Counted from the first letter of the stretch, positions 10,914 through 39,345 are shown. The stretch: DNA of 64,000 nt from Gammaproteobacteria bacterium GWE2_42_36 (GCA_001801305.1 MGXH01000002.1:3054-67053), one strand, 5' to 3'. Numbers and translations: made by a program. Notes: a model not told the origin generated them from the letters alone.

Positions 10914-11135
10914 ATGCTTATATTAACGAGGAGAATCGGAGAGACATTAATTATTGGTGATGATGTGTTAGTCACCGTTTTAGGTGTCAAAGGTAATCAA
11001 GTGCGCGTCGGCATTAATGCGCCTAAGACAACTTCTGTTCATCGCGAAGAAATTTATAAACGTATTCAAGATGAAAAAGAAAAAAATCAAGAAATATCGG
11101 AAGAAACCGATCAAGATGATACAGGAAATCAATAG
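10914..11135 (+). CDS. csrA: carbon storage regulator CsrA with an acidic C-terminal tail
   Basis: [38 protein letters not shown] matches CsrA. An AAGGAG Shine-Dalgarno lies 7 nt upstream. The tail is [20 protein letters not shown]. Confidence 0.9.
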
Positions 11136-11327: not shown

Positions 11328-12344
11328 TTATTTCAGATGGTAATCTAACGTTTTTCGAAGCGCTGTTTCAATATCATATTGCGGTTTCCAGCCCAGGCAA
11401 TTTTCCGCATGCTTGATTGAAGGAACGCGAGAAGGAACATCTTGATAGCCTTTGCCGTAATAAATGTTGGCATCTGTATCGATGAGTTTTGTTTTTTCTG
11501 CTAATTTTGCATATTTCGGATAAGTCTTAATGAGCTTCACTAATAACTCCGCCAATTCCCGAATCGATAAATCATTTTTCGGATTACCAATATTGAAAAT
11601 TTGTCCATTCGCCTTTCCCTCTTGATTATCGATAATTCGCATGAGGGCATCGATCCCATCATCAATGTAGGTAAAGCTTCGACGCTGTCTGCCACCATCG
11701 ACTAATTGAATATCTTTACCGCGCAAAATATTGCCGATAAATTGCGTTAAGACACGAGAACTGCCTTCTTTTTCGGCAAACACATCATCTTGTTTGGGGC
11801 CGATCCAGTTGAATGGTCTGAAATTGGTAAATTGTAATCCTTGGTGATTACCATAAGCATAAATAATTCGATCCATGAGTTGCTTAGAGGTTGAATAAAT
11901 CCATCGCTCTTTATTGATTGGCCCGACAATGAGCGGGCTTGTTTCTTCATCAAAAACGGCATCAGTCGACATCCCGTACACTTCAGACGTAGAGGGGAAT
12001 AGGACGCGTTTTTTATATTTGACGACTTGTCTAACAATCGGGAGATTAGCTTCGAAGTCGAGCTCAAACACACGCAGTGGATCGGTTACATAAGTGGAAG
12101 GTGTAGCGACGGCAACGAGTGGCAAAACCACATCGCATTTTTTGATATGATATTCGATCCATTCTTTATGGATCGTAATATCACCTTCGGTAAAGTGAAA
12201 ACGTTCGCGGCCCAATGAGCCCTCTAATTTATTGGCTGCAAGATCCATGCCATAGACGACCCAATCGGTATTGTCTAAAATCATTTCAGTTAGGCGGCTG
12301 CCGATAAATCCATTGACGCCTAAAATCAGTATTTTTTTAGTCAT
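11328..12344 (-). CDS. UDP-glucuronate decarboxylase-type NAD-dependent epimerase/dehydratase, homologous to the ArnA C-terminal domain
   Basis: Rossmann motif ILGVNGFIGSRL and a strong resemblance to the E. coli ArnA dehydrogenase domain (HFTEGDITIHKEWIEYHIKKCDVVLPLVA, PSTSEVYGM). There is no N-terminal formyltransferase domain. Confidence 0.8.
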   Translation of the reverse strand: MTKKILILGVNGFIGSRLTEMILDNTDWVVYGMDLAANKLEGSLGRERFHFTEGDITIHKEWIEYHIKKCDVVLPLVAVATPSTYVTDPLRVFELDFEANLPIVRQVVKYKKRVLFPSTSEVYGMSTDAVFDEETSPLIVGPINKERWIYSTSKQLMDRIIYAYGNHQGLQFTNFRPFNWIGPKQDDVFAEKEGSSRVLTQFIGNILRGKDIQLVDGGRQRRSFTYIDDGIDALMRIIDNQEGKANGQIFNIGNPKNDLSIRELAELLVKLIKTYPKYAKLAEKTKLIDTDANIYYGKGYQDVPSRVPSIKHAENCLGWKPQYDIETALRKTLDYHLK

Positions 12345-12347
12345 AAT

Positions 12348-13301
12348 TTATTGTCCTTCTTGTTGTTGACGAATTTCTCGAATTACAAAGCGCGGTCGTT
12401 TTAATGTTTCCAGATAAATTCTACCGATGTATTCACCTAAAATACCAACGCCCATGATGATGAGACCCATGATAAAAAAGGCGATGGCGAATAAAGTAAA
12501 CAATCCAGCGACTTCAGGGCCTATGACCAATCGACGAATGAGCAAGTAAATGACAAATAATAAGCTTAAAATCGAGACTGAAATCCCAATAAACGTAAAC
12601 ATTTGCAGTGGAACAAGCGAGAAATTCGTGATCAAGTCAAAATTATAGCGAATCAATTTGTAAAAACTGTAACTCGAGGTGCCGGCAGCACGTTCTTCAT
12701 GTTTGATACCGATTTCAGCGGGATTCGCGGCATAGGTCAACGCTAATGCGGTAATAAATGTCGAGCTTTCTCCGCTGGATACCATGAGATCGACTAAATT
12801 ACGACGATACGCGCGTAACATCGATCCTTCATCTTCCATTTTAAGGGAGGGAATCATTTTTTTACGTAACCAATTATGCGCATGAGAAACAAATAATCGC
12901 CATGGATTGTCTTGTCGATCCATGCGGTGGGTATTTACCACGTCATGACCTTTTTCCATTTCAGCGACGAGGCGAGGAATTTCTTCGGGCGGATTCTGTA
13001 AGTCGGCGTCCATCGTGATAATGATTTCACCACGGACATTTTCAAATCCTGCCATGATCGCCATATGTTGACCATAATTGCGATTGAAATGAATAATACG
13101 GAATTCGTTTGGTCGACGCTTAACGAAATCATTTAAAATCGCTGTAGAATTATCGGTGCTACCGTCATTCGTTAAAATCACTTCATACGGTTTGCCGAGT
13201 TGATCCATCACCGTGGTTAAACGTTGATAGAGAATTTCTAACACTTCCTGTTCGTTATGAACGGGAATGACGATGCTGATATAGGGTAGAGACGTAGTCA
13301 T
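12348..13301 (-). CDS. arnC: undecaprenyl-phosphate aminoarabinose transferase-like GT2 glycosyltransferase
   Basis: GT2 motifs (SIVIPVHNE, TMDADLQNPPEEI) and two C-terminal TM helices, as in ArnC/dolichol-phosphate sugar transferases. Confidence 0.8.
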   Translation of the reverse strand: MTTSLPYISIVIPVHNEQEVLEILYQRLTTVMDQLGKPYEVILTNDGSTDNSTAILNDFVKRRPNEFRIIHFNRNYGQHMAIMAGFENVRGEIIITMDADLQNPPEEIPRLVAEMEKGHDVVNTHRMDRQDNPWRLFVSHAHNWLRKKMIPSLKMEDEGSMLRAYRRNLVDLMVSSGESSTFITALALTYAANPAEIGIKHEERAAGTSSYSFYKLIRYNFDLITNFSLVPLQMFTFIGISVSILSLLFVIYLLIRRLVIGPEVAGLFTLFAIAFFIMGLIIMGVGILGEYIGRIYLETLKRPRFVIREIRQQQEGQ

Positions 13302-13380
13302 GAAAAAACCTCAGTTGTTTGTTTTGAGATAAATGGGAAAATCTTAGTTAAAAAAACATCAGTTCTTTTAAAATAAATGC

Positions 13381-14538
13381 TTACTTTCTAAATACCTCTT
13401 TCATTGTCGCAACGACCCGATCTTGTTGTTGTTCAGTTAGATCTGGGAAAAGCGGCAAACTGACAATGCGGCTTGCAATTGATTCGGTGTGTGGAAAATC
13501 GCCGAGCTTGTAGCCAAATTGATTACGGTAAAATGAATACAAATGTACCGCATCGTAGTGCAATCCTGTGCCGATATTATGTTCTTTCATTTTGGCCATG
13601 AAGGTATCGCGATCAACGCCAGCCACTTCCGGATTGATGAGCGGCGCAAACAAATGCCACGCATGTTTGCAATCGTAAGACGTTTTTGAAGGCGGCAAGG
13701 TGATTTCTTTCCAATCGGCGAGCAAGTGTAAATAACGATTCACCAAAACCGTTCGACGTTCGATAAACCGATCAAGCGAAGCGAGTTGATGAATGCCGAT
13801 CGCTGCTTGCAGATCGAGCATATTATATTTATAACCAGCCGAGATGACATCGTAATGCTGACTGCCTTCTTTCGAAAAACGGTTAAAGGCATCGCGATCA
13901 ATGCCATGAAAGCTGTTCACTTTAACGGAGCGTACAACGTGCGAATCATTGGTTGTGACGCAGCCGCCTTCGCCGCTGGTCATATTTTTATTCGGGTGAA
14001 AACTAAAGACTTGAATATCGCCGAAGCTGCCCAAAATTTTTCCTTTATAATAGGCGCCAATTGCGTGGGCCGCATCTTCAATCACGCGTAAATTGTATTT
14101 TTTAGCCAGTGCATAAATTACGTCCAGATCAGCGGGTAATCCCGTGTAGTGAATCGGCATAATCGCTTTAGTTTTTGGGGTAATCGCCGATTCGATTTTA
14201 GTCACGTCAATATTGTATGTGCGAGGATCGATATCGACAAACACGGGTTTCGCGCCTGCTTGAACAATCGTATTGGCTGAAGCAGCAAACGTTAAAGGGG
14301 AGGTGATGACTTCATCGCCGGGCTGAAAGTTGAGCGCTTGTAAAGCCAGTTGCAATCCTGCCGTTGCGGAGGTCAGCGGTACGGCATTTTCCGCCTTTAA
14401 ATAAGTTTTGAGATTTTCCGTAAATTTTTGTACGCGCGGGCCTGTCGTAAGCCAACCGGATTTTAAACAGTCAACTACTTCAGCAATGGTTGCGTCGTCA
14501 ATTGAAGGGCGAGCAAAAGGTAAAAAAGACTCTGTCAT
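13381..14538 (-). CDS. arnB: UDP-4-amino-4-deoxy-L-arabinose--oxoglutarate aminotransferase-like (DegT/ArnB family)
   Basis: 385 aa DegT/DnrJ/EryC1 PLP aminotransferase (FSFHPNKNMTSGEGG lysine region, DAAHAIGA). Confidence 0.8.
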   Translation of the reverse strand: MTESFLPFARPSIDDATIAEVVDCLKSGWLTTGPRVQKFTENLKTYLKAENAVPLTSATAGLQLALQALNFQPGDEVITSPLTFAASANTIVQAGAKPVFVDIDPRTYNIDVTKIESAITPKTKAIMPIHYTGLPADLDVIYALAKKYNLRVIEDAAHAIGAYYKGKILGSFGDIQVFSFHPNKNMTSGEGGCVTTNDSHVVRSVKVNSFHGIDRDAFNRFSKEGSQHYDVISAGYKYNMLDLQAAIGIHQLASLDRFIERRTVLVNRYLHLLADWKEITLPPSKTSYDCKHAWHLFAPLINPEVAGVDRDTFMAKMKEHNIGTGLHYDAVHLYSFYRNQFGYKLGDFPHTESIASRIVSLPLFPDLTEQQQDRVVATMKEVFRK

Positions 14539-14545
14539 AGTGTTC

Positions 14546-14917
14546 TTAACTCCGAGTTACAAAATACACCCCTAGTAGGATGACCAAGATGCCAACAATC
14601 CGTGTGGCGGATAAATTTTCTCCTAAAAAAAGATAAGCGCCTATTGGCGCTAAAATAAAACCAATGCTGGTTAATGGATAAGCAATAGAAACATCCGTGC
14701 GCGATAAAACCAACAACCAGAGAATAACGCTTAATACATAACAAGTAATCCCCGAGATAATGTAAGGGCTGGTTGCGACTTTAATCCCGATTGGAATCAG
14801 GCTGGGCAGGGTAAAAGTAAACGTACCGATGTGATTCATGGCTGCTTTAAGTAACAGTTGCGCCAGCGCATTGAGCAACATACAGGCAAACACAATTGAG
14901 AAAACGAGGATAGTCAT
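14546..14917 (-). CDS. small multidrug-resistance-fold 4-TM protein, ArnE/ArnF-like flippase subunit
   Basis: 123 aa with four hydrophobic helices (EamA/SMR-like), immediately upstream of arnB in the same operon. Confidence 0.65.
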   Translation of the reverse strand: MTILVFSIVFACMLLNALAQLLLKAAMNHIGTFTFTLPSLIPIGIKVATSPYIISGITCYVLSVILWLLVLSRTDVSIAYPLTSIGFILAPIGAYLFLGENLSATRIVGILVILLGVYFVTRS

Positions 14918-16221: not shown

Positions 16222-19200
16222 TCACCCCCAAATCATCAGATTCATATCATGTGGATACACCAATTTTGGATGATAAGGATAAATACGGACACCATAGGAA
16301 AATAAGCCCGTATCTTCTATTTTATATTCCGCCGTATACGTCAAAATACCACTTTCTCGTTTATCTGAAAGTGTCAACGGCATAGTAATAGGTGATGATT
16401 TCATTGGATCATCGGTCGTACGAATTAAAATCAGTTCTGCTTTGATTTCACTGGCCTTTAGTTTTCCGGAGAATAAAAGCAAGGTGATTTTTAGTTCGCC
16501 ACTGGTTTGGATCTTTCCATTTTTAATCCCTTCGACTAAGAGCGTTTTGATTTTAAGGGTATTAAAATGTAATCGAGTGCGTTCTTTCCATCGTACCAGG
16601 GCCTTTAAATCGGCAAAATCATTTTGCTGTAACTGGGTTGAATAACGGGCCAAGGGTAAATACAATTCTGACAGATAGTTTTTTACCATGTGGTGTGCGT
16701 TAAATTCGCAGCTGACTTCCATGATGGACGCTTTCATTCGCGCTACCCATTCTGATTTTCTCGTATCCTTTTTACTGTCGTAATACAATGGCGCAATTGT
16801 GTATTCCAGTTTATTGAGCAAATCATCGCACTCCGCGGCATTGCGTTTTTCTTCGTTGGTTTGCATTTCAACGGTATCAATCGACCAACCGGCTTGAGGA
16901 CTTGTTTCATCCCACCAGCCATCTCGAATCGAAAAGTTCAGTCCGCCATTCATCGCGACTTTCATGCCGCTCGTGCCACAGGCTTCTTTAGGGTAAATGG
17001 GATTATTTAGCCAGATATCAACCCCTTGCACCAATGCTTTGCTTAAAGACATATCATAGTCTTCTAGAAAGATAACGTGACCTTTAAAAGCCGGGTCGCG
17101 GGTTATTTCAATGATAGATTTCAAGACGTTTTTACCTAATGTATCGGCCGGGTGTGATTTTCCGGCAATCAATAACACAACCGGCATTTGGGGATTGGTC
17201 AGAATTTTTACGGCGCGTTCTCGGTTATTAAAAATTAAATCGTGTCGTTTGTAAGTAGCAAATCTCCTGGCAAAACCAATCAATAATGTTTGATTGGTTA
17301 ATGTTTCCAATGAAGACTGAATGAGTGATTCTTTTTCACTGCGGCGCCGATATTCTTTAGGAATACGCTCTTTCAAAATATTTAATAGGCGGTCTTTTTG
17401 AATTTGGTGGGTGTCCCATAAACTGTAATCGGGGATGAGGCTCATTTTTTTCCAAGTTTCGGGATCGTCTTGTGCATCGAGCCAAGAGCCTCCCAAATAA
17501 GTATCGAAAAGAATTCTCATGGGAATACCTAACCAAGTTTCGAGATGTACCCCATTCGTGACCCCTTCAATGGGCACTTCATTTTCCAGTAATCCCGGCC
17601 AGATCGGTTGCCACATATGCTGCGCAACACGTTGATGAATTTTTGATACGCCATTGGATTTAGCCGTTAATTTTAACGCTAGAATGGTCATTGAAAAGTT
17701 ATGCGCATTATCAAAATCGCGTGCGAATTCGAGCAGCTTTTCAATGGGGACGCCCAACAATTGTGCCGATTTAGAGAAATACTCTTTAATTAAAGTTTCA
17801 TCAAACACTTCATTTCCTGCCGGAACAGGCGTGTGTGTCGTAAAGACGGATGAAGCGCGCACCATTTCGATGGCCTCTGAATGTGAAAAGCCTTGATTAG
17901 CTAACATTTTAATGCGTTCTAACAATAAAAAAGCAGAATGACCTTCATTGAGATGGTAGACGCTCGGTGTGATCGCTAGCTTATCGGCAATTAATCGAAC
18001 ACCTGCGACGCCTAACACAATTTCTTGTAATAAACGTTGTGTTTTAGAATTGCAATATAATCGATTCGTGATTTGCCGATCATCAGGGTTGTTTTCAGGG
18101 ACGTCCGTATCGAGTAAATAGAGCGGGACTTTCCCCACTTTGAGTTTCCATATGCCGACGAAAATCGTTCTGTTTTGAACTTCAACGCCAATCAATAGAG
18201 GTTTGCCCGAATCATCGCTAAGTTGTTTTAAAGGTAATACTTTAGGGTCGATTGTGGCATGTTCGATGAGTTGCTCACCTTGATGGTCGACGCGTTGTGT
18301 CAGGTAACCTTGCTTGTAATATAAACCAATCGCAATTAAGGGCAAATCCACATCAGATACAGATTTTAAATAATCACCCGCCAAAATACCGAGGCCACCT
18401 GCGTAGATTGGTAAACTTTCATCTAAACCATATTCCAAACAAAAATAGGCGATGGGTTGATCGGCGTGAATGACCTCTAAATCCAATTTGCTTTTACGAT
18501 TAAGATATTGATCGAAAGCAATGAGTAAATGATTATATTTTTCCATATACCCGGGATCATTCATTTTTTGGGATAACAACGTGGACGATACGTTATTCAA
18601 AAATTCAATCGGATTGCGTTTTACTTTTTCCCATAAAACCGGATCCATCCCTTGAAATAATAATTTCACTTCGTGATGCCATGCCCACCACAAGTTGTAA
18701 GCGAGATCTCGTAATTGTGAAAGTTGTGCGGGCAATTGACACTCATGTTGAAAAGATCGAAAGCGCGGAGTAGTGGATTCAACCGTATGATAACTAGCCA
18801 TATACTCATTTTGTATATCTTCATAGTAAATGTCATTGAACTCGATGGCTTGGTCATAAGCATCGAGATAATCCTGATAAAACAATTTCCAGTCGGCTAA
18901 TTGCGCTATTTTAGCGACTTGTTCACGGATCGATTGTTTTTGCGCATCGGTTTGTTGGACGGTTTTATAAAGACAATCGCTCAGGCTGGTGACAATTTCT
19001 TCCTGTGTCCCATAATGTAACACTTGGACGGCTTCCTGATTCGGTAATTGTAAACTACTGACCCAAGATCCAAAGCCAGCCAAATTAGTAGTAATCGTCG
19101 GTGTTTGATAGGCAATACTTTCAAGCGGTGTGTAACCCCAAGGTTCATAGTAAGAAGGGAAGATGCTGAGGTCACAAGCGGCTAATATTTTCTCATAATC

Positions 19201-20439
19201 GATATTGAAAACACCGTCATGGCCATGTAAATAGCTATCGGAATAAATCACGGAAATTTTTCGACTCGGTTGATTGAAATTTAATTCGCGACACGTTTGA
19301 ATGATCGGATCTCTATTCGGGTCATTTAGTCGGTGTGTTGCAATACCGAGGGCGCTTTGCTGATTGGGGTCGTAAGACGCATGGCCTTGTGGTAATAAAC
19401 TGTCTTGTTCAGTGCGGTTATTTGCTGCAATACAAAATAACACAATGATGGGCGGCGCTTCAGCGGACAGTTCTTTTTCAAGTTTATCTAAGCTATACAA
19501 TAGTACGTCAAAACCCTTGTTATGAAATTCATAACGTCCGGAAGTAATCCAGAATAAAGCATTCGCCGGGACGTCATGACGTAAGGTTTGACTTGCCACA
19601 TGATGTAATTTTTCTCGAATAGCAGGAAGATCATAAGTTGTCAGGACTTGTTGAATATGCTCCACATCTAGTCCATTCGGTACGATTTTATCCGGATATT
19701 TTCCGAGCATGATATAGGCTTCATCGGCGGTGAGTGCGCTGACTGTTGTAAAGCAATCGGCTTCTCTAGCAGCAGCACGCTCGACAGAATGTTTAGCGAA
19801 AACACCATATTTTCTTGCTTCGGTTTCAGGATCAAAAGTGGCTGGTAAATTATAAATATCTCGGCGATCACTGGCTAACGCGCGGCCTAATACTGTGGCG
19901 TGGGTAGTAAATACTGTTGAAATGTTATGCGAATCATGTTCTGAAAATAAAATACCAGCGCCACATAACCATTCATGAAATTGAGCAATGATATTCGCAT
20001 TTTTGTAATGCTCATTTGAGGCGATGGCTTTAATGGCATCTGCGACGGTAGTCGAAAATAAAATGGGTTCGATGTATTCGTAATTGCCGGCGAGAGAATC
20101 CACATTAAAATGTGACCACATCGAATAAAGTATGTCGGCAATATTATAACGATTTTGATAATCGAGTAGAATGACTTGAGGTTTGCCTTCTTCCGCATCC
20201 CAATAACCCATGCGAAATCGCAAATGATGGTCTTCGAGAATTTTGGCGATTGGGGCTAAGTGATCAGGAATTGTTTCAACAAAATTTTGATTTTCAGGAA
20301 GCCAGGGGCCAACCATAATATAGCGATCGCCAAAAGAGGCGAGTGCTTGTTTGATTTTTGTACGCAAGACGGTATTGATGCCGCCGACTTTATTGCATAC
20401 TTCCCAGCTTGTTTCGAATAACCAAGTATTTTCTGACAT
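16222..20439 (-). CDS. fusion protein: N-terminal GT3 (eukaryote-type) glycogen synthase plus C-terminal GT35 alpha-glucan phosphorylase (GlgP family with DUF3417)
   Basis: 1405 aa. The N-terminus LFETSWEVCNKVGGINTVL matches the GT3 glycogen synthase signature (FExxWEVxNKVGGIxTV). About aa 600 onward carries DUF3417 (LAYNLWWAWHHEV) followed by phosphorylase motifs IAYFCLEYGL, GGLGILAGDYLKS and the PLP-lysine motif EACGTSGMKVAMNGG. Confidence 0.85.
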   Translation of the reverse strand: MSENTWLFETSWEVCNKVGGINTVLRTKIKQALASFGDRYIMVGPWLPENQNFVETIPDHLAPIAKILEDHHLRFRMGYWDAEEGKPQVILLDYQNRYNIADILYSMWSHFNVDSLAGNYEYIEPILFSTTVADAIKAIASNEHYKNANIIAQFHEWLCGAGILFSEHDSHNISTVFTTHATVLGRALASDRRDIYNLPATFDPETEARKYGVFAKHSVERAAAREADCFTTVSALTADEAYIMLGKYPDKIVPNGLDVEHIQQVLTTYDLPAIREKLHHVASQTLRHDVPANALFWITSGRYEFHNKGFDVLLYSLDKLEKELSAEAPPIIVLFCIAANNRTEQDSLLPQGHASYDPNQQSALGIATHRLNDPNRDPIIQTCRELNFNQPSRKISVIYSDSYLHGHDGVFNIDYEKILAACDLSIFPSYYEPWGYTPLESIAYQTPTITTNLAGFGSWVSSLQLPNQEAVQVLHYGTQEEIVTSLSDCLYKTVQQTDAQKQSIREQVAKIAQLADWKLFYQDYLDAYDQAIEFNDIYYEDIQNEYMASYHTVESTTPRFRSFQHECQLPAQLSQLRDLAYNLWWAWHHEVKLLFQGMDPVLWEKVKRNPIEFLNNVSSTLLSQKMNDPGYMEKYNHLLIAFDQYLNRKSKLDLEVIHADQPIAYFCLEYGLDESLPIYAGGLGILAGDYLKSVSDVDLPLIAIGLYYKQGYLTQRVDHQGEQLIEHATIDPKVLPLKQLSDDSGKPLLIGVEVQNRTIFVGIWKLKVGKVPLYLLDTDVPENNPDDRQITNRLYCNSKTQRLLQEIVLGVAGVRLIADKLAITPSVYHLNEGHSAFLLLERIKMLANQGFSHSEAIEMVRASSVFTTHTPVPAGNEVFDETLIKEYFSKSAQLLGVPIEKLLEFARDFDNAHNFSMTILALKLTAKSNGVSKIHQRVAQHMWQPIWPGLLENEVPIEGVTNGVHLETWLGIPMRILFDTYLGGSWLDAQDDPETWKKMSLIPDYSLWDTHQIQKDRLLNILKERIPKEYRRRSEKESLIQSSLETLTNQTLLIGFARRFATYKRHDLIFNNRERAVKILTNPQMPVVLLIAGKSHPADTLGKNVLKSIIEITRDPAFKGHVIFLEDYDMSLSKALVQGVDIWLNNPIYPKEACGTSGMKVAMNGGLNFSIRDGWWDETSPQAGWSIDTVEMQTNEEKRNAAECDDLLNKLEYTIAPLYYDSKKDTRKSEWVARMKASIMEVSCEFNAHHMVKNYLSELYLPLARYSTQLQQNDFADLKALVRWKERTRLHFNTLKIKTLLVEGIKNGKIQTSGELKITLLLFSGKLKASEIKAELILIRTTDDPMKSSPITMPLTLSDKRESGILTYTAEYKIEDTGLFSYGVRIYPYHPKLVYPHDMNLMIWG

Positions 20440-20445
20440 AGTTCG

Positions 20446-21660
20446 TTAGGCTCCTTTCTTTTTTTTCTGTTTCATTTTCTGCTGATTTAATTGTAAAACA
20501 AAATCAGTTAATATATTTTTGTAATTGACATAGGCGTCATAGGGGTTGTGGTAAGGATTGAAATATTTATGTACGTCACCATCATTCGCATATTTTGTGC
20601 ACATATAATAAAAATGATCGGATGTTTGTAATAATCGCCAAGTATGTAATAAGTCTTTATCGCCGGATGCTTTGACTTTTCCTTCTAAAAGGTAGACCGA
20701 TTGCAAGGCATCTTCTTGAAGCGGGTTTCCTCGCCAGGCTGAAAGATCTCGTTCTTCGTCCGCCCATGAAACAAAATGCGGTGTATCCAATGTCGCAACC
20801 GCTTTAAATTTTTTGCTGACTTCACAAGGCAGGAGGAATTCAAAATCGGCATGCTGGAAAATTTTTTCTGGTAATTGTTCTAAAAATGCAAAAATACCGG
20901 TTTCTTTCCATTGATGTTCGCCGAACGTTTCATAATCCATAAACAGATTGATCACCTCCGCTTGTCCGGCCAATTGATGAACCCAATAGGCGTATTTTTC
21001 AGCCAGCAAAGGATACTCGACCCAAGATTGATTAGAAAAACGAAACGCTACATCATCGGATAGTCGATAATTTTTTAACAGCTGTTGTAATTTTTTACAC
21101 CCGACAGGGCGATAAACAAAATTGGGACTACGCCAGCCGAGCACTTTATCGGCGCCTTCGGTAAGTAAGGTTTTATAACCCATCCCTTCGACAAATTGGG
21201 CGAGTTCATTATTATAAATTAATTCGGTATTACGAAAAGTGGTGGCTTTGTAGCCAAACTCTTTTCGAATCAATTTATGGTGTAGTTCAACTTGTTCGGT
21301 AAATTCTTCTTTGGAAAAAAGATACGACAGCGAGTGGTAATAAGTTTCATCTAAAAACTCGACTTCGCCGGTATCTGCCAATGCTTTGAAAGAGTCTAAC
21401 ACTTCGGGTCGATATTGTTTGAATTGATCGATGACCGTGCCCGATAAAGAGAAAGCAACTTTGAATTTTCCTCGATAACGTTTAATTAATTTAAGCAATA
21501 ATTGATTGGTCGGGAGATAACATTTTTCAGCGACTTTCAGCAAGATCTCTCGGTTGGTTTTTTCGTCTTCATAGTCATGCGATTGACCGATGTCAAAATA
21601 CGTGTATTTTCTTAACCGATTCGGTTGATGCACCTGAAAATATAAACACAGAGCAGTCAT
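20446..21660 (-). CDS. glycoside hydrolase family 57 protein (alpha-amylase / 4-alpha-glucanotransferase / branching-enzyme type)
   Basis: 404 aa with the GH57 region I signature near the N-terminus (YFQVHQPNR) and a conserved Trp/Glu-rich core. It is 6 nt downstream of the fusion gene. Confidence 0.7.
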   Translation of the reverse strand: MTALCLYFQVHQPNRLRKYTYFDIGQSHDYEDEKTNREILLKVAEKCYLPTNQLLLKLIKRYRGKFKVAFSLSGTVIDQFKQYRPEVLDSFKALADTGEVEFLDETYYHSLSYLFSKEEFTEQVELHHKLIRKEFGYKATTFRNTELIYNNELAQFVEGMGYKTLLTEGADKVLGWRSPNFVYRPVGCKKLQQLLKNYRLSDDVAFRFSNQSWVEYPLLAEKYAYWVHQLAGQAEVINLFMDYETFGEHQWKETGIFAFLEQLPEKIFQHADFEFLLPCEVSKKFKAVATLDTPHFVSWADEERDLSAWRGNPLQEDALQSVYLLEGKVKASGDKDLLHTWRLLQTSDHFYYMCTKYANDGDVHKYFNPYHNPYDAYVNYKNILTDFVLQLNQQKMKQKKKKGA

Positions 21661-21674
21661 CGGCTACCTCCTCT

Positions 21675-22958
21675 TTATAGATTGATGGCTTGTTGATAAA
21701 TATCAACTAATTTATCCGCAGCGCTTTCCCAAGTTAATTGGTCAAGGTCTTTTTTCGATGCATTTACCGTTGTTTCGCGCAAAACAGGATAATCCAATAA
21801 CGCGCACATCTTGGACGCCATTTCATGAATATCCCAGTAATCAACGGTTAATACATTTTGTAACACTTCTGCTGCACCTGATTGTTTTGAAATGAGTATG
21901 GGAATATTTTGCGATAAGGCTTCTAAAGCGGTGAGCCCAAAGGGTTCTGATACGCTGGGCATGACATAAAGATCGGCCATTTGATAGATTTTCTTTGTGA
22001 CTGTGGGGGGTACAAAGCCGGTAAAATGCACATGGTGAGCCACGCTGCTTTGAGCGACATGTTCAATCATGCTCGGTAATAAATCACCCGTTCCGGCAAT
22101 AACGAAATGGACATCTTTTCGCTTCGATAATATTTTTTTCGCGGCTTCGATGAAGAAATAAGGCCCCTTTTGATACGTGACGCGACCTAAAAACAAAATC
22201 ATTTTCGAGCGTTTTTTATCGTGTTTTTTGCGAGATGTTTCTGTGGATCGTTCCGTAGGGGAAATACCATTATGGACAACAAAAATTTTATCTTCTGAAA
22301 TACCATAATATTGCATGGCAACGCTTTTCGTGTATTGGCTAACCGCAATAACTAAATCGGCTTGTTCCATGACTTGTTTCTCAATCGCAAAAACTTGCTG
22401 ATTGACATTTTCGCCGCATCGATCTCGTTCGAGCGCGTGAATATGAAAAACCAGTGGTTTTTTACTGTTTTTTTTTGCTTCAATACCCGCAAGACCGGTC
22501 AACCAATCGTGAGCATGAATCACATCATGCGATGTTGTTTTTGCAATGCTGCCGGCAATAACGGCGTAACGATACACTTCAGCCATTAAATTCGGGCCAT
22601 ATTTTCCCGTAAAAGCAAAAGGGTCACTGCTGGAAGCGCGTTTAACCTGATCGCTAAAGGTCAGCAATAAATCGTGGTAACGTTCTTCAGTGATGTAAGG
22701 GTGCAGCAATGTATCAATTTCGGTAATATTAACGTTCTGTAGCAGCGTTTGTAGCCAGGTGTGTTCTTCACATAAATTGCGGCATCCCAATAGGGAAAAT
22801 TGATCGTGACAAACAATATCTTGAGCGGCATGAGGAAGGACTAAGGTTACATTAACGTCGGGTTTTTTAATCAGCGAAGTGACCATCCCATAACAGGCGA
22901 CACCTAAACCGCCACTGATGTGAGGAGGGAACTCCCAACCGTACATGAGGATCTTCAT
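21675..22958 (-). CDS. GT4-family glycosyltransferase (glycogen-synthase-like retaining transferase)
   Basis: 427 aa. The N-terminal MKILMYGWEFPPHISGGLGV is the GT4/GT-B donor-binding start. The C-terminal EX7E-like region is VMPSVSEPFGLTALEAL. Confidence 0.75.
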   Translation of the reverse strand: MKILMYGWEFPPHISGGLGVACYGMVTSLIKKPDVNVTLVLPHAAQDIVCHDQFSLLGCRNLCEEHTWLQTLLQNVNITEIDTLLHPYITEERYHDLLLTFSDQVKRASSSDPFAFTGKYGPNLMAEVYRYAVIAGSIAKTTSHDVIHAHDWLTGLAGIEAKKNSKKPLVFHIHALERDRCGENVNQQVFAIEKQVMEQADLVIAVSQYTKSVAMQYYGISEDKIFVVHNGISPTERSTETSRKKHDKKRSKMILFLGRVTYQKGPYFFIEAAKKILSKRKDVHFVIAGTGDLLPSMIEHVAQSSVAHHVHFTGFVPPTVTKKIYQMADLYVMPSVSEPFGLTALEALSQNIPILISKQSGAAEVLQNVLTVDYWDIHEMASKMCALLDYPVLRETTVNASKKDLDQLTWESAADKLVDIYQQAINL

Positions 22959-23065
22959 CGCAATTCCTTTAATATGAGCATCATTCTCAAGTTCTGATCA
23001 TTGTATCATAAAAGTTTCATGTATGAAGAAGTGAGTCAAAAAAATTGATGTTTTTTACGGTTCCT

Positions 23066-25111
23066 TTAATGTTTGTACAACGATTGCGCGAGTTGCAAGA
23101 AAGCCGCGACACTCCATGCTTGATGAATGCATCCGCGTGGATGGTGTGGCGCGTCCCCATCAAAAATTTCCGAAACACAGCCGATACCGGCTTCGGATAA
23201 ATGGCGTGTGAGCGCATCCACACAGGGTTGCAATAATTGTTGAGTCGTTGCACGGTCGGCATACACTTTGTTGACTGCTCGAGCGAAATGCCCCAATAGC
23301 CACGGCCAAACAGTTCCGTTGTGATACGCTTGATCTCGTTTGGATTGCTCGCCTTGATAAATGCCGATGTAATGAGGATCTTCAGGCGATAAAGTGCGCA
23401 ATCCATACGGGGTCAACAAATGTTTGATAACGATTTCGATAACCCCTATCGCCATGTCTTTTGCTAGCGGAGAATAGGGGAGTGAGGCTGCTATGATTTG
23501 ATTCGGGCGAATAGATAGATCTTCACCGTCATCATTCACATAATCTTTTAAATGGTTTGACGATTTTATCCAAAAGACTTGTTGAAAAGCATTTTGGATT
23601 TTCTGTGCCAGTGTAGCAAAATTTTTCGCCGTTATTTTTTCGCCAAAACAGGTCGCTAATTCTTGCATAAAACAAATGAAATTATACCAAAGCGCATTTA
23701 ATTCGACGATTGCGCCATAGCGTGGTGTCGCCGGCTTCCCATTGACTATCGCATCCATCCAAGTGACATTGGTTCCAGGATCGCCGGCGTAAAGCAATCC
23801 ATTTTCTCGCTGATGAATCTGATACAAAGTGCCGGCTTGATAATGTGAAAAAATACTTTTTAACGTTGGCCATAGCCGTTTTTTTATCGAAGAACGATCT
23901 TTTGTTGTGAGATAGTATTGCTGCACGGCCCATGCGAACCATAAACTGGCATCGGCCGAATTATAGGCATTTTCCTCAGGTGTTTTACCCAGGAAATTAG
24001 GGATGATGCCTTGATGTTCCTGTTCGGCAAATGATTTGAGAATCGCTAAACATTCCGCCGCTTGGTCAGTAGATAAGGTGAGATCGGGTAGTGAGATCAT
24101 GGCATCGCGGCCCCAGTCTAAAAACCAGGGATAACCTGCTACGAGCGTGATGGATTGGCGTAAAGAAGAATCTGTATTTTCATCGATGGATAAGTAAGCG
24201 CCTGTCGCTCGCCCTTTTTCATCGCGTATCTCATCTTTTTGTACCCGCGTGAAATATTTCAGAAAATCTTGCCCGGATTGCTTCAGTTGTTGTTCTAACG
24301 GCGTCCCTGTATAAGAACGCCTCAATTTAACGCGGCGTTTTATTTCATTTTGGAAAATAAGAGAAAGATCATCGGATAATTCATTTGATGAAGCAGAGAA
24401 AATAATATCCTGGTGTTGATAACAAGCGATAGTAAATTGACCCGGGGAAAACAAATCTTCGCGATAAGGGTATCCGCGTTCTTGTTCTTCTCGGTATTCG
24501 TATTGTTTATACCACACCGGATTTTGTTCACATTCGAAAGCAGTGTTGATCTGAAAGTATAAGTTTGGAAATGTGGCATAGGGCTTTATTTGATAGCCTT
24601 GCTTGGAGGACGATAAAATGCGCGACATACAGTCGTTTTCATGCGTGAGTTCATGAAAATTGCGCGCAGCAATCATCGGACGTAATTGCAGCGTGATCGG
24701 TTGTTTGGATGAGGTTTTATATCGAATGAGTACCGTATTTCTTAAGTGGGGCATTAAAATTTCTTTGGTGATCGTTATATCGTTGAATTGAAACGTCCAG
24801 CACGGATGGGTTGTTAAATCGAAGCGTTGAAAACAATGAAAACTACCCTCTTGAAAATAATTCGGAAACTGCGATCCGCAAAGTGGATAAGAGATATCAT
24901 TGATGATCACATAATCTTCACATTTGGATAATAGAACAAACTTTTCAGCGAAGGCTTCAATTTCCGCAACGAGCAAGCCATGGTATTTTCGAGTGTGGCA
25001 ATTGAGTAACGAACTCGAAGCATAACCACCCAGATGATTGGTTTCGAGCCATTCTCGAGAAAGAAAATCCTGAGTATTTGAAAAAGCCGTTTTCGCAAAT
25101 GAAAAATCCAT
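23066..25111 (-). CDS. amylo-alpha-1,6-glucosidase-type glycogen debranching enzyme (GDE_C, six-hairpin glycosidase fold)
   Basis: 681 aa. The N-terminus REWLETNHLGGYASSSLLNCHTRKYHGLLVA is typical of bacterial/archaeal GDE-N. The C-terminal (alpha/alpha)6 barrel has ITLVAGYPWFLDWGRDAMISL and GLLYAGD motifs. Confidence 0.8.
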   Translation of the reverse strand: MDFSFAKTAFSNTQDFLSREWLETNHLGGYASSSLLNCHTRKYHGLLVAEIEAFAEKFVLLSKCEDYVIINDISYPLCGSQFPNYFQEGSFHCFQRFDLTTHPCWTFQFNDITITKEILMPHLRNTVLIRYKTSSKQPITLQLRPMIAARNFHELTHENDCMSRILSSSKQGYQIKPYATFPNLYFQINTAFECEQNPVWYKQYEYREEQERGYPYREDLFSPGQFTIACYQHQDIIFSASSNELSDDLSLIFQNEIKRRVKLRRSYTGTPLEQQLKQSGQDFLKYFTRVQKDEIRDEKGRATGAYLSIDENTDSSLRQSITLVAGYPWFLDWGRDAMISLPDLTLSTDQAAECLAILKSFAEQEHQGIIPNFLGKTPEENAYNSADASLWFAWAVQQYYLTTKDRSSIKKRLWPTLKSIFSHYQAGTLYQIHQRENGLLYAGDPGTNVTWMDAIVNGKPATPRYGAIVELNALWYNFICFMQELATCFGEKITAKNFATLAQKIQNAFQQVFWIKSSNHLKDYVNDDGEDLSIRPNQIIAASLPYSPLAKDMAIGVIEIVIKHLLTPYGLRTLSPEDPHYIGIYQGEQSKRDQAYHNGTVWPWLLGHFARAVNKVYADRATTQQLLQPCVDALTRHLSEAGIGCVSEIFDGDAPHHPRGCIHQAWSVAAFLQLAQSLYKH

Positions 25112-25197
25112 ATATCACCGCTCAATAGTTATCAAAAAAACTATTATTGCGCGAGTACGAACGGGAGTCTAGTGTTGCTGTTTAAAAAATACTGAGC

Positions 25198-25899
25198 TTA
25201 TAAAGTGATTGTTTCACCCACTTTCAATTCAAGGCAATTTTCTTGGTAATGTTTTTTGAACAGTTTTTTAGCTAGAGTGCCGCTACAATGAAGCGGTGCA
25301 ATTCTTTTGACTTGGAGTGATTGCAAGGTGCGAATGAGACTTTCAATTTCCATCTGATTTTTTCGATACAAATGAAAGCCTCCTATAAAAAGATCGATGG
25401 GATCATGAGGAAAATGTGTTTTTACGACAGTGACAATGGTCGTTATGGATGGATGGGCACAGCCAGTTAAAATTGTGAGCCCGCGCGTTCCTTTTAAAAT
25501 TAAAACCTGTTCGACGATGAGTTGCTTATTGTATAGACCGACTAACTCGCCAGAAGAAAAGACTTGTTTGTCGATTACGCAAAAAGGCGAAACAGAAATT
25601 ATTTTATTTGAAGTGATTGAAATTCGTGAATGCGGGCAGAGATAAATTGATTCAGGGTCGGCAAAGGTAAGTAGTTTGTTTAATGCGCCTGCATGATCGT
25701 GATGATCATGAGAAATAATGATGGATTTTATTGAGGTGGGATCAATAGCCATCAAATGGAGATTATGACGCAATGCCTTACTGCTCTTCCCCACGTCAAA
25801 CAGAATAGCGTCATTGACGAGGCAAGAAAATCCCCAACCCGTTTTAAAATGTGGATGGATGGCATGAGAATCAAATAGCAGCTTAATATTCATAAGCAT
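25198..25899 (-). CDS. MBL-fold metallo-hydrolase
   Basis: 233 aa with the metallo-beta-lactamase HxHxDH motif (IISHDHHDHAGAL). It overlaps the coaBC 3' end by 10 nt. Confidence 0.7.
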   Translation of the reverse strand: MLMNIKLLFDSHAIHPHFKTGWGFSCLVNDAILFDVGKSSKALRHNLHLMAIDPTSIKSIIISHDHHDHAGALNKLLTFADPESIYLCPHSRISITSNKIISVSPFCVIDKQVFSSGELVGLYNKQLIVEQVLILKGTRGLTILTGCAHPSITTIVTVVKTHFPHDPIDLFIGGFHLYRKNQMEIESLIRTLQSLQVKRIAPLHCSGTLAKKLFKKHYQENCLELKVGETITL

Positions 25900-27086
25900 T
25901 TATTGATGATTTCAAGTAACTCATAGGCGAGCAGCGATTTGCTTTTTTTGGGGAGTGTAATGGTTTTCCCCTGTCGAGTGATAATGATCAGTGCATTTTC
26001 ATCGCTGTTAAATCCTTTATTGTCACCTACTTCGTTAGCGGCGATGAGATCAATGTTTTTATGGCTCAATTTTTGTCGGGCATGTTCGAGAACGTGTTCT
26101 GTTTCTGCAGCGAATCCTACCGTAAAGGGTGGATTCGGCAACGCGGCAACAGCGCCTAAAATATCGGGATTTTTGATGAATTTCAGAGAAATGGTTTCTT
26201 CGGAGCGCTTCATTTTTTGAGTTGAAAAAATTTCCGGTCGATAATCGGCGACGGCTGCGGTTGCGATAAAAATATCGCAATCGTGAATGGTTAACATCAC
26301 TGCCTGCCTCATTTCTTCGGCCGTTTTTATGTGAGTGGCGGTGACGTGATGCGGAAGGGGAAGACAAGTGGGTCCAGTAATGAGTGTGACGGTGGCGCCG
26401 AGATCTCTGGCTGCTTTGGCAATCGCATAACCCATTTTGCCCGAGCTGTAATTGGTCATACATCGCACGGGATCGATGGGCTCGATCGTCGGACCGGCCG
26501 TGATGACGACTTTTTTATTTTCAAGTAAAGGTGGGGAAAAAGCGTGATGGAGATGGCTGACAATTTCTGTAGGTGGAATCATTCGGCCAAGACCTATTTC
26601 TCCACAAGCTTGAAAACCCATTTCAGGCCCAAAAATTTTTATGCCTTTTTTTTCGAGTGCTTTCAGGTTTTCTTGTGTCGTATGATTTTCCCACATCGCA
26701 TGATTCATAGCAGGCGCAACAGCAATCGGTGCATCACTGGCCAGGCAAATTGTCGTGAGTAAATTGTCCGCAATCCCATACGCTAATTTGGCCAGTGTAT
26801 TCGCTGTAGCTGGCGCGATTAAAATCATATCGGCCCACCGGGCTAATTCAATATGATCAATTTGCCAGTCATTGGATGATTGATCAAACAGATCGGTATA
26901 AACAGGGTTATTCGATAATGTTTTAAGCGTGAGAGGCGTAATAAACTCTAAACCGGCCGGCGTAACTATGGCTTTAACATTCGCATGATTCGTTTTTAAG
27001 AGACGAATGAGTTCGCAGCTTTTATAGGCTGCAATGCCGCCCGTGATGCCGAGAATGATTTTTTTATTATTTAAATGATCCAGCAT
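25890..27086 (-). CDS. coaBC: bifunctional phosphopantothenoylcysteine decarboxylase / phosphopantothenate--cysteine ligase
   Basis: Flavoprotein domain (KIILGITGGIAAYK) plus the CoaB domain (KMGYAIAKAARDLGA). The start was chosen at MLDHLNNKK, which is Met27 of the track ORF and abuts the HIT gene stop. Confidence 0.9.
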   Translation of the reverse strand: MLDHLNNKKIILGITGGIAAYKSCELIRLLKTNHANVKAIVTPAGLEFITPLTLKTLSNNPVYTDLFDQSSNDWQIDHIELARWADMILIAPATANTLAKLAYGIADNLLTTICLASDAPIAVAPAMNHAMWENHTTQENLKALEKKGIKIFGPEMGFQACGEIGLGRMIPPTEIVSHLHHAFSPPLLENKKVVITAGPTIEPIDPVRCMTNYSSGKMGYAIAKAARDLGATVTLITGPTCLPLPHHVTATHIKTAEEMRQAVMLTIHDCDIFIATAAVADYRPEIFSTQKMKRSEETISLKFIKNPDILGAVAALPNPPFTVGFAAETEHVLEHARQKLSHKNIDLIAANEVGDNKGFNSDENALIIITRQGKTITLPKKSKSLLAYELLEIINKCL

Positions 27087-27087
27087 G

Positions 27088-27552
27088 TTAGGGGTTCTCC
27101 TGAGACAGTGCTCGTTTAAATTGCTCAGCCAGTTGATTGATCTTTTGCGGGTCGACAGGCCCAATACAATTTTCTCGTGCGTGATGAAAAATCTTTACTG
27201 CATCGATCTGGTTATTGGCATCCTGAATATGGGGCCAATCGAGCATCCAATCGTATCGAGGAAAAAGATGAAAATGCACGTGCGGCGTCAGCTCATTAAA
27301 ACTGCACATATAGATTTTTTCAATGGCTGGATCAAAATTTTTTAAAAATCGAATAGTCCATTGAGATAAGCGAGAAAATTGGGCTAATTCTTTTCCGGTT
27401 AATAATTCGTAACTGGCTATGTGGCGAATCGGTGCGATCATCAAATATCCGAGAATAGTCGTGTCAGCGCAGTGCCAAATCATGATGTCATCATCACGAT
27501 AAAAAAGGGCGTTGGGTTTTTGTGTCAGTTGGCAAATAGAACAAGACATCAT
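27088..27552 (-). CDS. HIT-family nucleotide hydrolase/transferase
   Basis: 154 aa with the histidine-triad motif HVHFHLFPR. Confidence 0.75.
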   Translation of the reverse strand: MMSCSICQLTQKPNALFYRDDDIMIWHCADTTILGYLMIAPIRHIASYELLTGKELAQFSRLSQWTIRFLKNFDPAIEKIYMCSFNELTPHVHFHLFPRYDWMLDWPHIQDANNQIDAVKIFHHARENCIGPVDPQKINQLAEQFKRALSQENP

Positions 27553-39204: not shown

Positions 39205-39345
39205 AATAGTTCCTTCATATGTTTATTTCTTTAATGGGTAAGATTTATTCTTAATTCCAAATGAATGCGCAACATATTCTCTAATGCTTAACCCATTTGG
39301 TCAAATAAAATGTGCGAAGTAGTGGTTATTGTGATTGTGGCTGTT

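Follow-up and report, generated by a model that had tools for sequence, protein, structure and literature searches.

A GH133, GT4 and GH57 gene trio joined to a GT3-GT35 fusion gene in a Coxiellaceae-like gammaproteobacterium: a candidate module of glycogen-like α-glucan metabolism

Introduction

A trio of genes encoding a glycogen debranching enzyme (GDE) of family GH133, a glycosyltransferase of family GT4 and a glycoside hydrolase of family GH57 has been noted, without functional study, in Bacteroides thetaiotaomicron, Segatella copri and Picrophilus torridus. In P. torridus, the role of the GT4 protein "requires clarification", according to a 2024 review. B. thetaiotaomicron and S. copri have a GT3-type synthase and no GlgC, and Bacteroidetes make glycogen even though they lack GlgC (PMC10395257). 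In B. thetaiotaomicron, a GH13 branching enzyme, BT_0771, is encoded away from the trio, and the GH57 member, BT_4305, has been reported as an in vivo fitness gene. Here we describe a locus of this kind in a 64-kb stretch of DNA (MGXH01000002.1, 3054-67053; the whole stretch is called the window below) from the metagenome-assembled genome (MAG) Gammaproteobacteria bacterium GWE2_42_36. The trio is followed directly by a gene in which a GT3 synthase and a GT35 phosphorylase are fused. We suggest, with a probability of roughly 0.65, that these four genes form one module that makes and consumes an intracellular glycogen-like α-glucan without GlgC, GT5 GlgA or GlgX.

The genetics of a related archaeal system are available for comparison. 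In Sulfolobus acidocaldarius, amyA, a GH57 gene, shares a transcript with glgA. Strains with a markerless deletion of amyA no longer accumulate glycogen and regain it on complementation, and the glycogen content increases when the GH133 gene "glgX" or the GH15 gene is deleted (PMC8158581). In that organism, the phenotypes place GH57 in synthesis and GH133 in breakdown. Among the GH57 "α-amylases", AmyA of Methanocaldococcus jannaschii alone has been characterised biochemically, and hydrolysis was the one activity assayed. According to an article in Chemical Reviews (2024), every archaeon without a classical branching enzyme has kept a GH57 protein of the α-amylase type; the article raised the question of whether this protein is the missing enzyme and proposed it for that role.

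Results and Discussion

Organization of the locus

Four co-oriented open reading frames (ORFs) occupy the minus strand of the window from 16222 to 25111, in the order GDE, GT4, GH57 and fusion gene.

23066..25111, minus strand: GH133 amylo-α-1,6-glucosidase (GDE), 681 aa; PF12439 and PF06202, TIGR01561
22959..23065, minus strand: 107-nt spacer between the GDE and GT4 genes, with a promoter-like site
21675..22958, minus strand: GT4 glycosyltransferase, retaining, GT-B, 427 aa; Pfam matches
20446..21660, minus strand: GH57 protein, assigned to the "α-amylase" subgroup, 404 aa; PF03065 over its full length
16222..20439, minus strand: GT3-DUF3417-GT35 fusion, 1405 aa; last gene of the array

The genes are separated by 107 nt (GDE-GT4), 14 nt (GT4-GH57) and 6 nt (GH57-fusion), and this spacing suggests that the array is probably co-transcribed. 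All four ORFs are full length in comparison with their homologues, and each catalytic or cofactor motif that was checked is intact. An earlier note on this DNA had placed the GH57, GT4 and GDE genes just upstream of the GT3-GT35 fusion in one co-oriented array. The coordinates confirm this, and its family assignments are correct, with Pfam and NCBIfam matches for all four proteins. It had given the gaps as 6-100 nt; the lower end stands, and the upper end is slightly low. A 129-aa ORF (23017..23406) within the GDE gene was set aside as a mechanical overlap.

None of glgC, GT5 glgA, GH13 glgB or glgX, glgE, treS or galU was found among the 46 ORFs that were taken into the Pfam and NCBIfam scans, of the 49 window ORFs of at least 150 aa. 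Of the three left out, two occupy the places expected for clpP and clpX, between tig and lon, and one overlaps a pseudouridine synthase gene. The classical glg genes are also absent for about 1.5 kb past one window end and about 10 kb past the other, where a walk outward from the terminal genes met only ppsA, nag genes and an efflux pump, and the absence covers about 75 kb in total. The scanned region therefore holds no classical operon of the glgBXCAP type. With the four ORFs verified and the scans negative for classical glg genes, the earlier observation that none of them is visible in the window is borne out.

The GH57 protein

The GH57 protein matches PF03065 over residues 6-293 (profile positions 2-290 of 291, 2.8e-73). 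Its five conserved sequence regions (CSRs) are QVHQP (residues 9-13), GEVEFL (98-103), RNTELI (143-148), FMDYETFGEH (240-249) and LQTSDHFYY (344-352). The catalytic nucleophile, E146 in CSR-3, and the proton donor, D242 in CSR-4, are intact, and both residues are invariant in 81 of 81 sequences (the window protein and 80 relatives) as well as in a 65-sequence alignment. In the classification of Martinovičová & Janeček (2018), members of the "α-amylase" subgroup of GH57 have a CSR-3 that begins with a non-aromatic residue, carry Thr at fingerprint position 23 and Tyr-Tyr at 35-36, and are about 414 aa long. The window protein, with R143, T245, Y351-Y352 and 404 aa, has this fingerprint. CSR-1, CSR-3 and CSR-4 are identical to those of the Lawsonia, Cyclobacterium and Alistipes proteins, and CSR-5 to those of the first two. 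On these sequence features, we assign the window GH57 to the "α-amylase" subgroup of the M. jannaschii and Sulfolobus AmyA proteins.

We also considered that the protein might be a short branching enzyme, and this is ruled out by the published fingerprints and by length. GH57 branching enzymes have Leu at position 23, Phe followed by a non-aromatic residue at positions 35-36, a length of about 546 aa, with about 520-550 aa for the enzymes compared below, and an extra C-terminal domain. The earlier note was thus right that the protein is too short for a typical branching enzyme, and its caution about the source of branching was well placed.

The AlphaFold2 (AF2) model of the protein has a predicted local distance difference test score (pLDDT) of 89. 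In Foldseek it resembles every solved GH57 structure to about the same degree, with 13-16% identity; for the branching enzymes, the values are E of about 1e-12 to 1e-14, TM of about 0.66-0.68 and 14-16% identity. Because enzymes of every specificity match about equally at such low identity, the fold cannot decide the specificity of the window protein. The Protein Data Bank (PDB) contains no solved structure for the α-amylase-type subgroup.

The published table of GH57 CSRs (supplement to PMC6037648) shows what has happened to related copies in Bacteroidota. BT_4305 is listed there in an "α-amylase-like" group with both catalytic residues replaced (RNSSLI, FMELSALGMA). Among the rows examined, neither catalytic residue remains in the listed copies from Bacteroides and Prevotella, and the Porphyromonas copy lacks the proton donor. 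Since these residues are lost in Bacteroides-type copies, GH57 catalysis is not always needed in the module, and the fitness effect of BT_4305, which lacks them, raises the possibility that the GH57 protein of the trio may also have a noncatalytic role. In contrast to the listed gut and oral Bacteroidota copies, which are apparently inactive, the window protein keeps the residues and is predicted to be the catalytically competent form.

The GT4 protein

The GT4 protein matches PF00534 (Glycos_transf_1, 9.9e-32) and PF13439 (Glyco_transf_4, 1.9e-19), and the starch-synthase catalytic domain PF08323 matches its N-terminal half. It has the motifs SGGLG (15-19), GRVTYQKG (258-265) and an invariant E338-x7-E346. 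The GT-B fold of the AF2 model, the Glycos_transf_1 C-domain and the E-x7-E motif identify it as a retaining glycosyltransferase. The model (pLDDT 81) is matched in Foldseek by MshA, the top match, and by GlgM and GlgA; as for GH57, the fold cannot settle the specificity, because the solved relatives match about equally. When a profile of 56 GT4 homologues was searched against the PDB, the best match was GlgM (6tvp, 7.5e-35, 23% identity), followed by Pyrococcus abyssi GlgA (1.3e-26) and then MshA. The profile aligns with GlgM only from residue 146 on, the first 145 residues being divergent.

Two specific identities were tried and rejected. As GlgM, the protein scores 139.3 bits on TIGR02149, against a cut-off of 302.4, and has no GlgE partner in the window or in loci with annotated neighbours. 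As GT5 GlgA, it scores 87.3 bits on TIGR02095, against a cut-off of 328, and has I-S-G-G-L in place of K-x-G-G-L, so that the Lys is missing. Because it falls below both curated cut-offs and no GlgE is encoded nearby, we read the protein as a predicted α-1,4-glucosyltransferase that would use a nucleoside diphosphate (NDP)-glucose, and not as GlgM.

The profile match to GlgM bears on a maltose-1-phosphate route, which the earlier note had offered as an alternative. In such a route, a GlgM-like GT4 would use NDP-glucose and glucose-1-phosphate, and polymerisation would be carried out by a GlgE encoded elsewhere or, more speculatively, by the GH57 protein. GlgM is indeed the best PDB match of the profile, but the TIGR02149 score and the 145 unaligned residues speak against this identity, and neither GlgE, TreS nor Pep2 is encoded in the window or beside the block in loci with annotated neighbours. 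Furthermore, we know of no GH57 enzyme that uses a sugar-phosphate donor. With the GT4 protein below the GlgM and GlgA cut-offs and no GlgE partner, the idea is unsupported, and we regard it as very improbable.

The debranching enzyme and the fusion protein

The GDE consists of PF12439 (GDE_N, 2.6e-69) and the six-hairpin PF06202 (GDE_C, 1.3e-116) and passes the cut-off of TIGR01561, archaeal-type debranching enzyme, with 388.7 bits against 364.15. Human and yeast GDE align with it over their C-terminal glucosidase domain (human residues 1076-1528), and the window protein has D453 (TWMD) and E648 (VSEIF) where the human enzyme has the experimentally verified catalytic residues D1261 and E1502. 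Neither Pfam nor the alignment to human GDE shows a GH13 4-α-glucanotransferase domain in the window protein, and a bifunctional GDE of the eukaryotic kind was rejected (TIGR01531, 112 bits against a cut-off of 1399).

The fusion protein contains Glycogen_syn (GT3), DUF3417 and phosphorylase domains and scores 758 bits on TIGR02094. Its GT3 half has the motifs KVGGI (K17) and EPWGYTPLE (432-440), and its phosphorylase half has the pyridoxal phosphate-lysine motif EACGTSGMK (1152-1160). Because the adjoining synthase domain is a GT3 with these two motifs, the UDP-glucose route suggested by the earlier note is plausible. A search of the literature available to us found no description of a GT3-GT35 fusion and no functional work on BT_4304, the middle gene of the B. 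thetaiotaomicron trio.

Conservation of the module

One genome per species was scanned, which gave 519 loci with GH57 relatives, and the best 80 were analysed. The GT4 gene lies directly upstream of GH57 in all 80. In 54 loci the gene next upstream of GT4 encodes a GDE, in 8 others a GDE gene lies no further than 10 kb away, and a GT3 gene is found no more than 1.5 kb downstream of GH57 in 28. Where both the GT3 and the GT35 halves are present, they form a single ORF (27 of 27 loci). The carriers are mostly Bacteroidota, together with Planctomycetota, Deltaproteobacteria/Polyangia (Myxococcota-like) MAGs, Leptospiraceae, Omnitrophica, the candidate phyla radiation (CPR), Nanoarchaeota and Altiarchaeota, and the GT4-GH57 adjacency spans at least eight phylum-level groups. 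The nearest metagenomic relatives, with 63-73% GH57 identity, include Coxiellaceae and Legionellales MAGs and have the same four genes packed together; the flanking contexts of the block differ among the closest of them. In every locus, then, GH57 is accompanied by a synthase-like transferase, whereas most loci, but not all, also link it to a degradative (α/α)6 hydrolase of family GH133 or GH15.

The GH15 cases are six loci without GDE in which a GH15 glucoamylase-like gene lies downstream of GH57, directly after it in five. These GT4-GH57-GH15 loci (L011, L018, L022, L023, L063 and L068) come from CPR, Nanoarchaeota and two uncultured gammaproteobacterial MAGs. They represent a second form of the module, made up of a glycosyltransferase, GH57 and an (α/α)6 hydrolase. 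In L022 (8761-14714), phosphoglucose isomerase is encoded next after GH15.

Because of the synteny across loci and the mentions of the trio in the literature, the window locus belongs to a large known module. It adds a member to a widespread gene set that had been noticed before but is biochemically unexplored, and is not a new kind of system. The likeness to GH57/GT4/GDE clusters had been correctly recognised before, since the gene order is that of BT_4303-BT_4305 and of S. copri and the GT4-GH57 pair is universal in our set. The term "non-canonical", however, overstates the rarity of the locus, as both GH57 and GT4 have more than 8000 database relatives, whose hosts range over Bacteroidota, Planctomycetota, CPR bacteria and DPANN archaea. 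The earlier note also spoke of a five-gene block that could be conserved or patchy: the GT4-GH57 pair is conserved, GDE and GT3 are less regularly present, and the conserved unit is four genes, not five.

Two observations concern the state of the block in other genomes. In one Coxiellaceae MAG, seen in two samples (L083, 8667-12859; L084, 6164-6755), the GT3-GT35 gene is split into about seven short ORFs, and the GDE, GT4 and GH57 genes are intact; the splitting may reflect pseudogenisation or assembly errors. On a 1.8-Mb contig of a relative (L087/L088, 1-6000 and 19700-20000), the block has a phage-type integrase gene, DDE transposase genes and a gene for a leucine-rich-repeat protein as neighbours, which suggests that it moves as a unit in host-associated genomes.

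Proposed function

The evidence for a single module of α-glucan metabolism is the family membership of the four proteins, their catalytic residues, a gene order that is kept across phyla and the lack of classical glg genes in about 75 kb. In the scheme that we propose, the GT3 domain would synthesise chains from a nucleotide-glucose, most likely UDP-glucose judging by its family. The GT4 protein would be a second α-1,4-glucosyltransferase, either a chain initiator for a primer-dependent GT3 or a co-elongator. The GH57 protein would act on the growing glucan beside GT4 and would be needed for polymer build-up, cutting and re-joining chains by branching or trimming and not just digesting them; this role is suggested by the invariant GT4-GH57 pairing and by the Sulfolobus genetics. 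The GT35 domain would phosphorolyse the glucan to glucose-1-phosphate, and GH133 would clear the α-1,6 stubs, as indicated by the conservation of its catalytic pair and by the Sulfolobus GH133 mutant, whose phenotype points to breakdown. The pairing and the Sulfolobus genetics point to GH57 in synthesis, and trimming or chain transfer would fit as well as branching. Branching itself would be supplied either by a GH13 enzyme encoded elsewhere or by GH57.

Could GH57 and GH133 instead be purely catabolic partners of GT35, corresponding to the two domains of the eukaryotic GDE? In such a split form of indirect debranching, the GH57 protein would be a 4-α-glucanotransferase that shifts the maltooligosyl stubs of the phosphorylase-limit dextrin, and GH133 would remove the remaining α-1,6 glucose. 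The GH133 protein does stand alone, whereas eukaryotic GDE combines this domain with a GH13 transferase. In addition, the Thermococcus litoralis 4-α-glucanotransferase is the sole solved structure that sequence searches of the PDB with GH57 reached, with a weak match, the GH57 branching enzymes not being reached, and the published GH57 tree groups the α-amylase subgroup with the 4-α-glucanotransferases. However, GH57 is tied to GT4 (80/80) and not to GH133 (adjacent in 54/80), and GH15 replaces GH133 in some loci. Position 23 of the fingerprint is Thr, as in the α-amylase type, and not Lys, as in 4-α-glucanotransferases. Finally, deletion of amyA in Sulfolobus lowers glycogen and deletion of the GH133 gene raises it, although partners in a single step should not have opposite effects. 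We consider such a division of labour quite unlikely.

A simpler degradative scheme would make GH57 an intracellular endo-α-amylase and GH133 a debrancher of imported or stored maltodextrins, with a GT4 that is unrelated to them and makes a glucosylated solute or glycolipid. The M. jannaschii AmyA, whose conserved regions are near-identical, is described as an enzyme that hydrolyses starch and pullulan. GT4 is a very broad family, MshA is the top Foldseek match, and many GT4 homologues are labelled "cell wall biosynthesis" by the Joint Genome Institute (JGI). Moreover, a GH65 and β-phosphoglucomutase (β-PGM) route for maltose-type disaccharides is encoded 12 kb away. An unrelated GT4 is nevertheless hard to reconcile with its invariant adjacency to GH57 over at least eight phylum-level groups, with the starch-synthase match of its N-terminal half, and with GlgM and GlgA, both of which form α-1,4-glucosyl bonds, as its nearest solved profile relatives. 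The same GH57 subgroup is also anabolic by the Sulfolobus phenotype. Plain degradation is, in our judgment, unlikely.

Several points weigh against the proposed biosynthetic module. The sole biochemistry of the GH57 subgroup, that of M. jannaschii AmyA, is hydrolysis, and its bacterial members and the GT4 protein are biochemically uncharacterised. The presence of two α-1,4 synthases, GT3 and GT4, in one operon is unexplained. The case for co-transcription is the gene spacing, and a promoter and terminator scan gave counts at chance (27 sites against 26.5 expected), with two weak leads. A GH13 branching enzyme or a glgC could be present elsewhere in the genome. Lastly, the gut Bacteroides, Prevotella and Porphyromonas GH57 copies lack one or both catalytic residues.

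The proposal can be extended in a bolder direction, which we put forward tentatively and think doubtful. The GT4 and the small GH57 could be a self-sufficient synthase/branching pair, and the GH57 subgroup would then be the "missing" branching enzyme of archaea that have neither a GH13 nor a GH57 one. The four-gene operon would in that event take over the whole task of glgBXCAP and would have been gained by Coxiella/Legionella-like bacteria after ancestral loss of the classical genes.

Host lineage and significance

The host is a Coxiellaceae-like gammaproteobacterial MAG from groundwater (Rifle aquifer). In the GWE2_42_36 annotation, the GDE and fusion proteins are each a "hypothetical protein". 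An identical GDE sequence is also present in a MAG labelled "Coxiellaceae bacterium", and the sister MAG GWF2_41_13 has the same block, with proteins 91-95% identical, and the same trxB downstream. The GC and GC3 of the four block genes are those of alaS and lon, and this comparison gives no signal of recent horizontal transfer. Because the composition equals that of housekeeping genes, the block is not a recent compositional intruder but a settled part of the genome. A rough neighbour-joining (NJ) tree, calculated without bootstrap, places the window with Deltaproteobacteria/Polyangia MAGs, as sister to Bacteroidota, and is suggestive only.

All glg genes are reported to be absent from Coxiella and Legionella (PMC4301808), and comparative work dates the inferred loss of the glgPACXB operon to the last common ancestor of Legionellales (PMC8896642). 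This fits the absence of the classical genes here. The reported loss also bears on whether the four genes are decaying relics in a genome that has a working classical glg operon at another site, as the fragmented fusion gene of the Coxiellaceae MAG might suggest. For the window, this is largely refuted by the full-length ORFs, the intact motifs and the close agreement in sequence and order with the sister MAG, as well as by the reported loss of glgPACXB, and we give it hardly any weight.

The module is among the most widespread α-glucan gene sets outside the Escherichia coli paradigm, yet it is biochemically unstudied. The window locus contributes in two ways. Its GH57 copy is intact and, as judged from its residues, should be catalytically competent, in contrast to the degenerate copies of gut Bacteroides, Prevotella and Porphyromonas. 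It also lies in a Coxiellaceae-like lineage, and loss of the classical glycogen genes has been reported for its order. Because of this copy and this lineage, the locus is a clean candidate for the question of whether carbon storage was regained through gene transfer in host-associated gammaproteobacteria.

Flanking features and neighbouring genes

Three further features lie in or beside the array.

23027..23000, minus strand: promoter-like site TTCATA-16-TGxTACAAT, inside the GDE-GT4 spacer
25143..25171, minus strand: promoter-like site TAGACT-17-AATAAT, 32 nt 5' of the GDE start codon; a consensus match only
25198-25899, minus strand: metallo-β-lactamase-fold ORF, 233 aa, ending 86 nt before the GDE start

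The site in the spacer could be where an internal transcript covering GT4, GH57 and the fusion gene begins. The metallo-β-lactamase-fold ORF shares 10 nt with the end of coaBC (25890-27164, minus strand). It is not kept beside the block in relatives and is therefore probably outside the module; this is the gene by which the five-gene count was too high.

The window genes are otherwise housekeeping genes (alaS, tig, lon, trmD, rimM, scpAB, coaBC, trxB and typA), arn-like envelope genes, transporters and efflux pumps. The window also holds other α-glucoside genes, which lie 12 kb from the glucan operon (36880-40815, minus strand). These encode a 774-aa GH65 disaccharide phosphorylase (NF010380, 1193 bits) and β-PGM (TIGR01990). 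An unannotated 228-aa ORF accompanies them, and an ABC importer adjoins (41057-44811, plus strand). The set is a route for maltose, trehalose or kojibiose phosphorolysis and could consume maltose freed from the polymer.

The csrA gene (carbon storage regulator; about 10914-11135, plus strand) directly follows alaS; CsrA is a repressor of glycogen genes in E. coli. An arn-like set lies 3' of the csrA region (11328-14917, minus strand) and encodes an NAD-dependent epimerase/dehydratase, a GT2 protein, a DegT-type aminotransferase, whose best match is the UDP-4-amino-4-deoxy-L-arabinose (UDP-Ara4N) aminotransferase, and a small EamA/ArnF-like membrane protein. This set probably modifies lipid A with an aminosugar.

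Comparison with known systems

The closest described loci are those of Bacteroidota. In B. thetaiotaomicron, BT_4303 (GH133), BT_4304 and BT_4305 (GH57) have the same outer two families and the same order as the window genes, and BT_4304 is presumably a GT4; the annotation of these genes, too, goes no further than predicted α-glucan enzymes. The S. copri trio, annotated as "predicted α-glucan-related enzymes", is GH133-GT4-GH57 and agrees with the window in families and order. The window locus is a GDE-GT4-GH57 module of the BT_4303-BT_4305 type in its order, co-orientation and 107- and 14-nt gaps. Unlike BT_4305, its GH57 keeps both catalytic residues, and unlike the B. thetaiotaomicron and S. 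copri trios, it has the GT3-GT35 fusion directly after it and a Coxiellaceae-like gammaproteobacterium as host.

The S. acidocaldarius cluster, glgX[GH133]-gaa[GH15]-glgC and amyA[GH57]-glgA, resembles the window in having a GH57 of the same subgroup (amyA, AAY80547) beside a glucan synthase, together with a GH133. It differs in that the synthase is a GT5 GlgA and not a GT4, that glgC and GH15 are present, that there is no GT3-GT35 fusion and that the host is an archaeal thermoacidophile. The M. jannaschii AmyA (Q59006) has the CSRs EVHQP, GNVELI, RNTELI, YMDYETFGEH and LQTSDNLYY, nearly identical to those of the window GH57, and both proteins keep the catalytic Glu and Asp; AmyA is longer, at 467 aa against 404, and comes from a hyperthermophile. 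The GH57 branching enzymes of Thermus thermophilus, Thermococcus kodakarensis, Pyrococcus horikoshii and Thermotoga maritima (AmyC) share the (β/α)7 fold and the catalytic dyad with the window protein and differ from it in length and in fingerprint positions 23 and 35-36.

Mycobacterial GlgM and archaeal GT5 GlgA share the R-x-T-x-Q-K-G and E-x7-E motifs with the window GT4, which is set apart from them by its scores, its divergent N-terminal 145 residues and its lack of a GlgE partner. The eukaryotic glycogen synthase (GYS) and GDE share the GT3 and GH133 families with the window locus, which has neither glycogenin nor the GH13 transferase domain. Finally, glgBXCAP of E. coli has the same overall task as that proposed here, to build, branch, debranch and phosphorolyse the glucan; its GlgC, GT5 GlgA, GH13 GlgB and GlgX are not encoded at the window locus, where the candidate module is made up of GH133, GT4, GH57 and the GT3-GT35 fusion.

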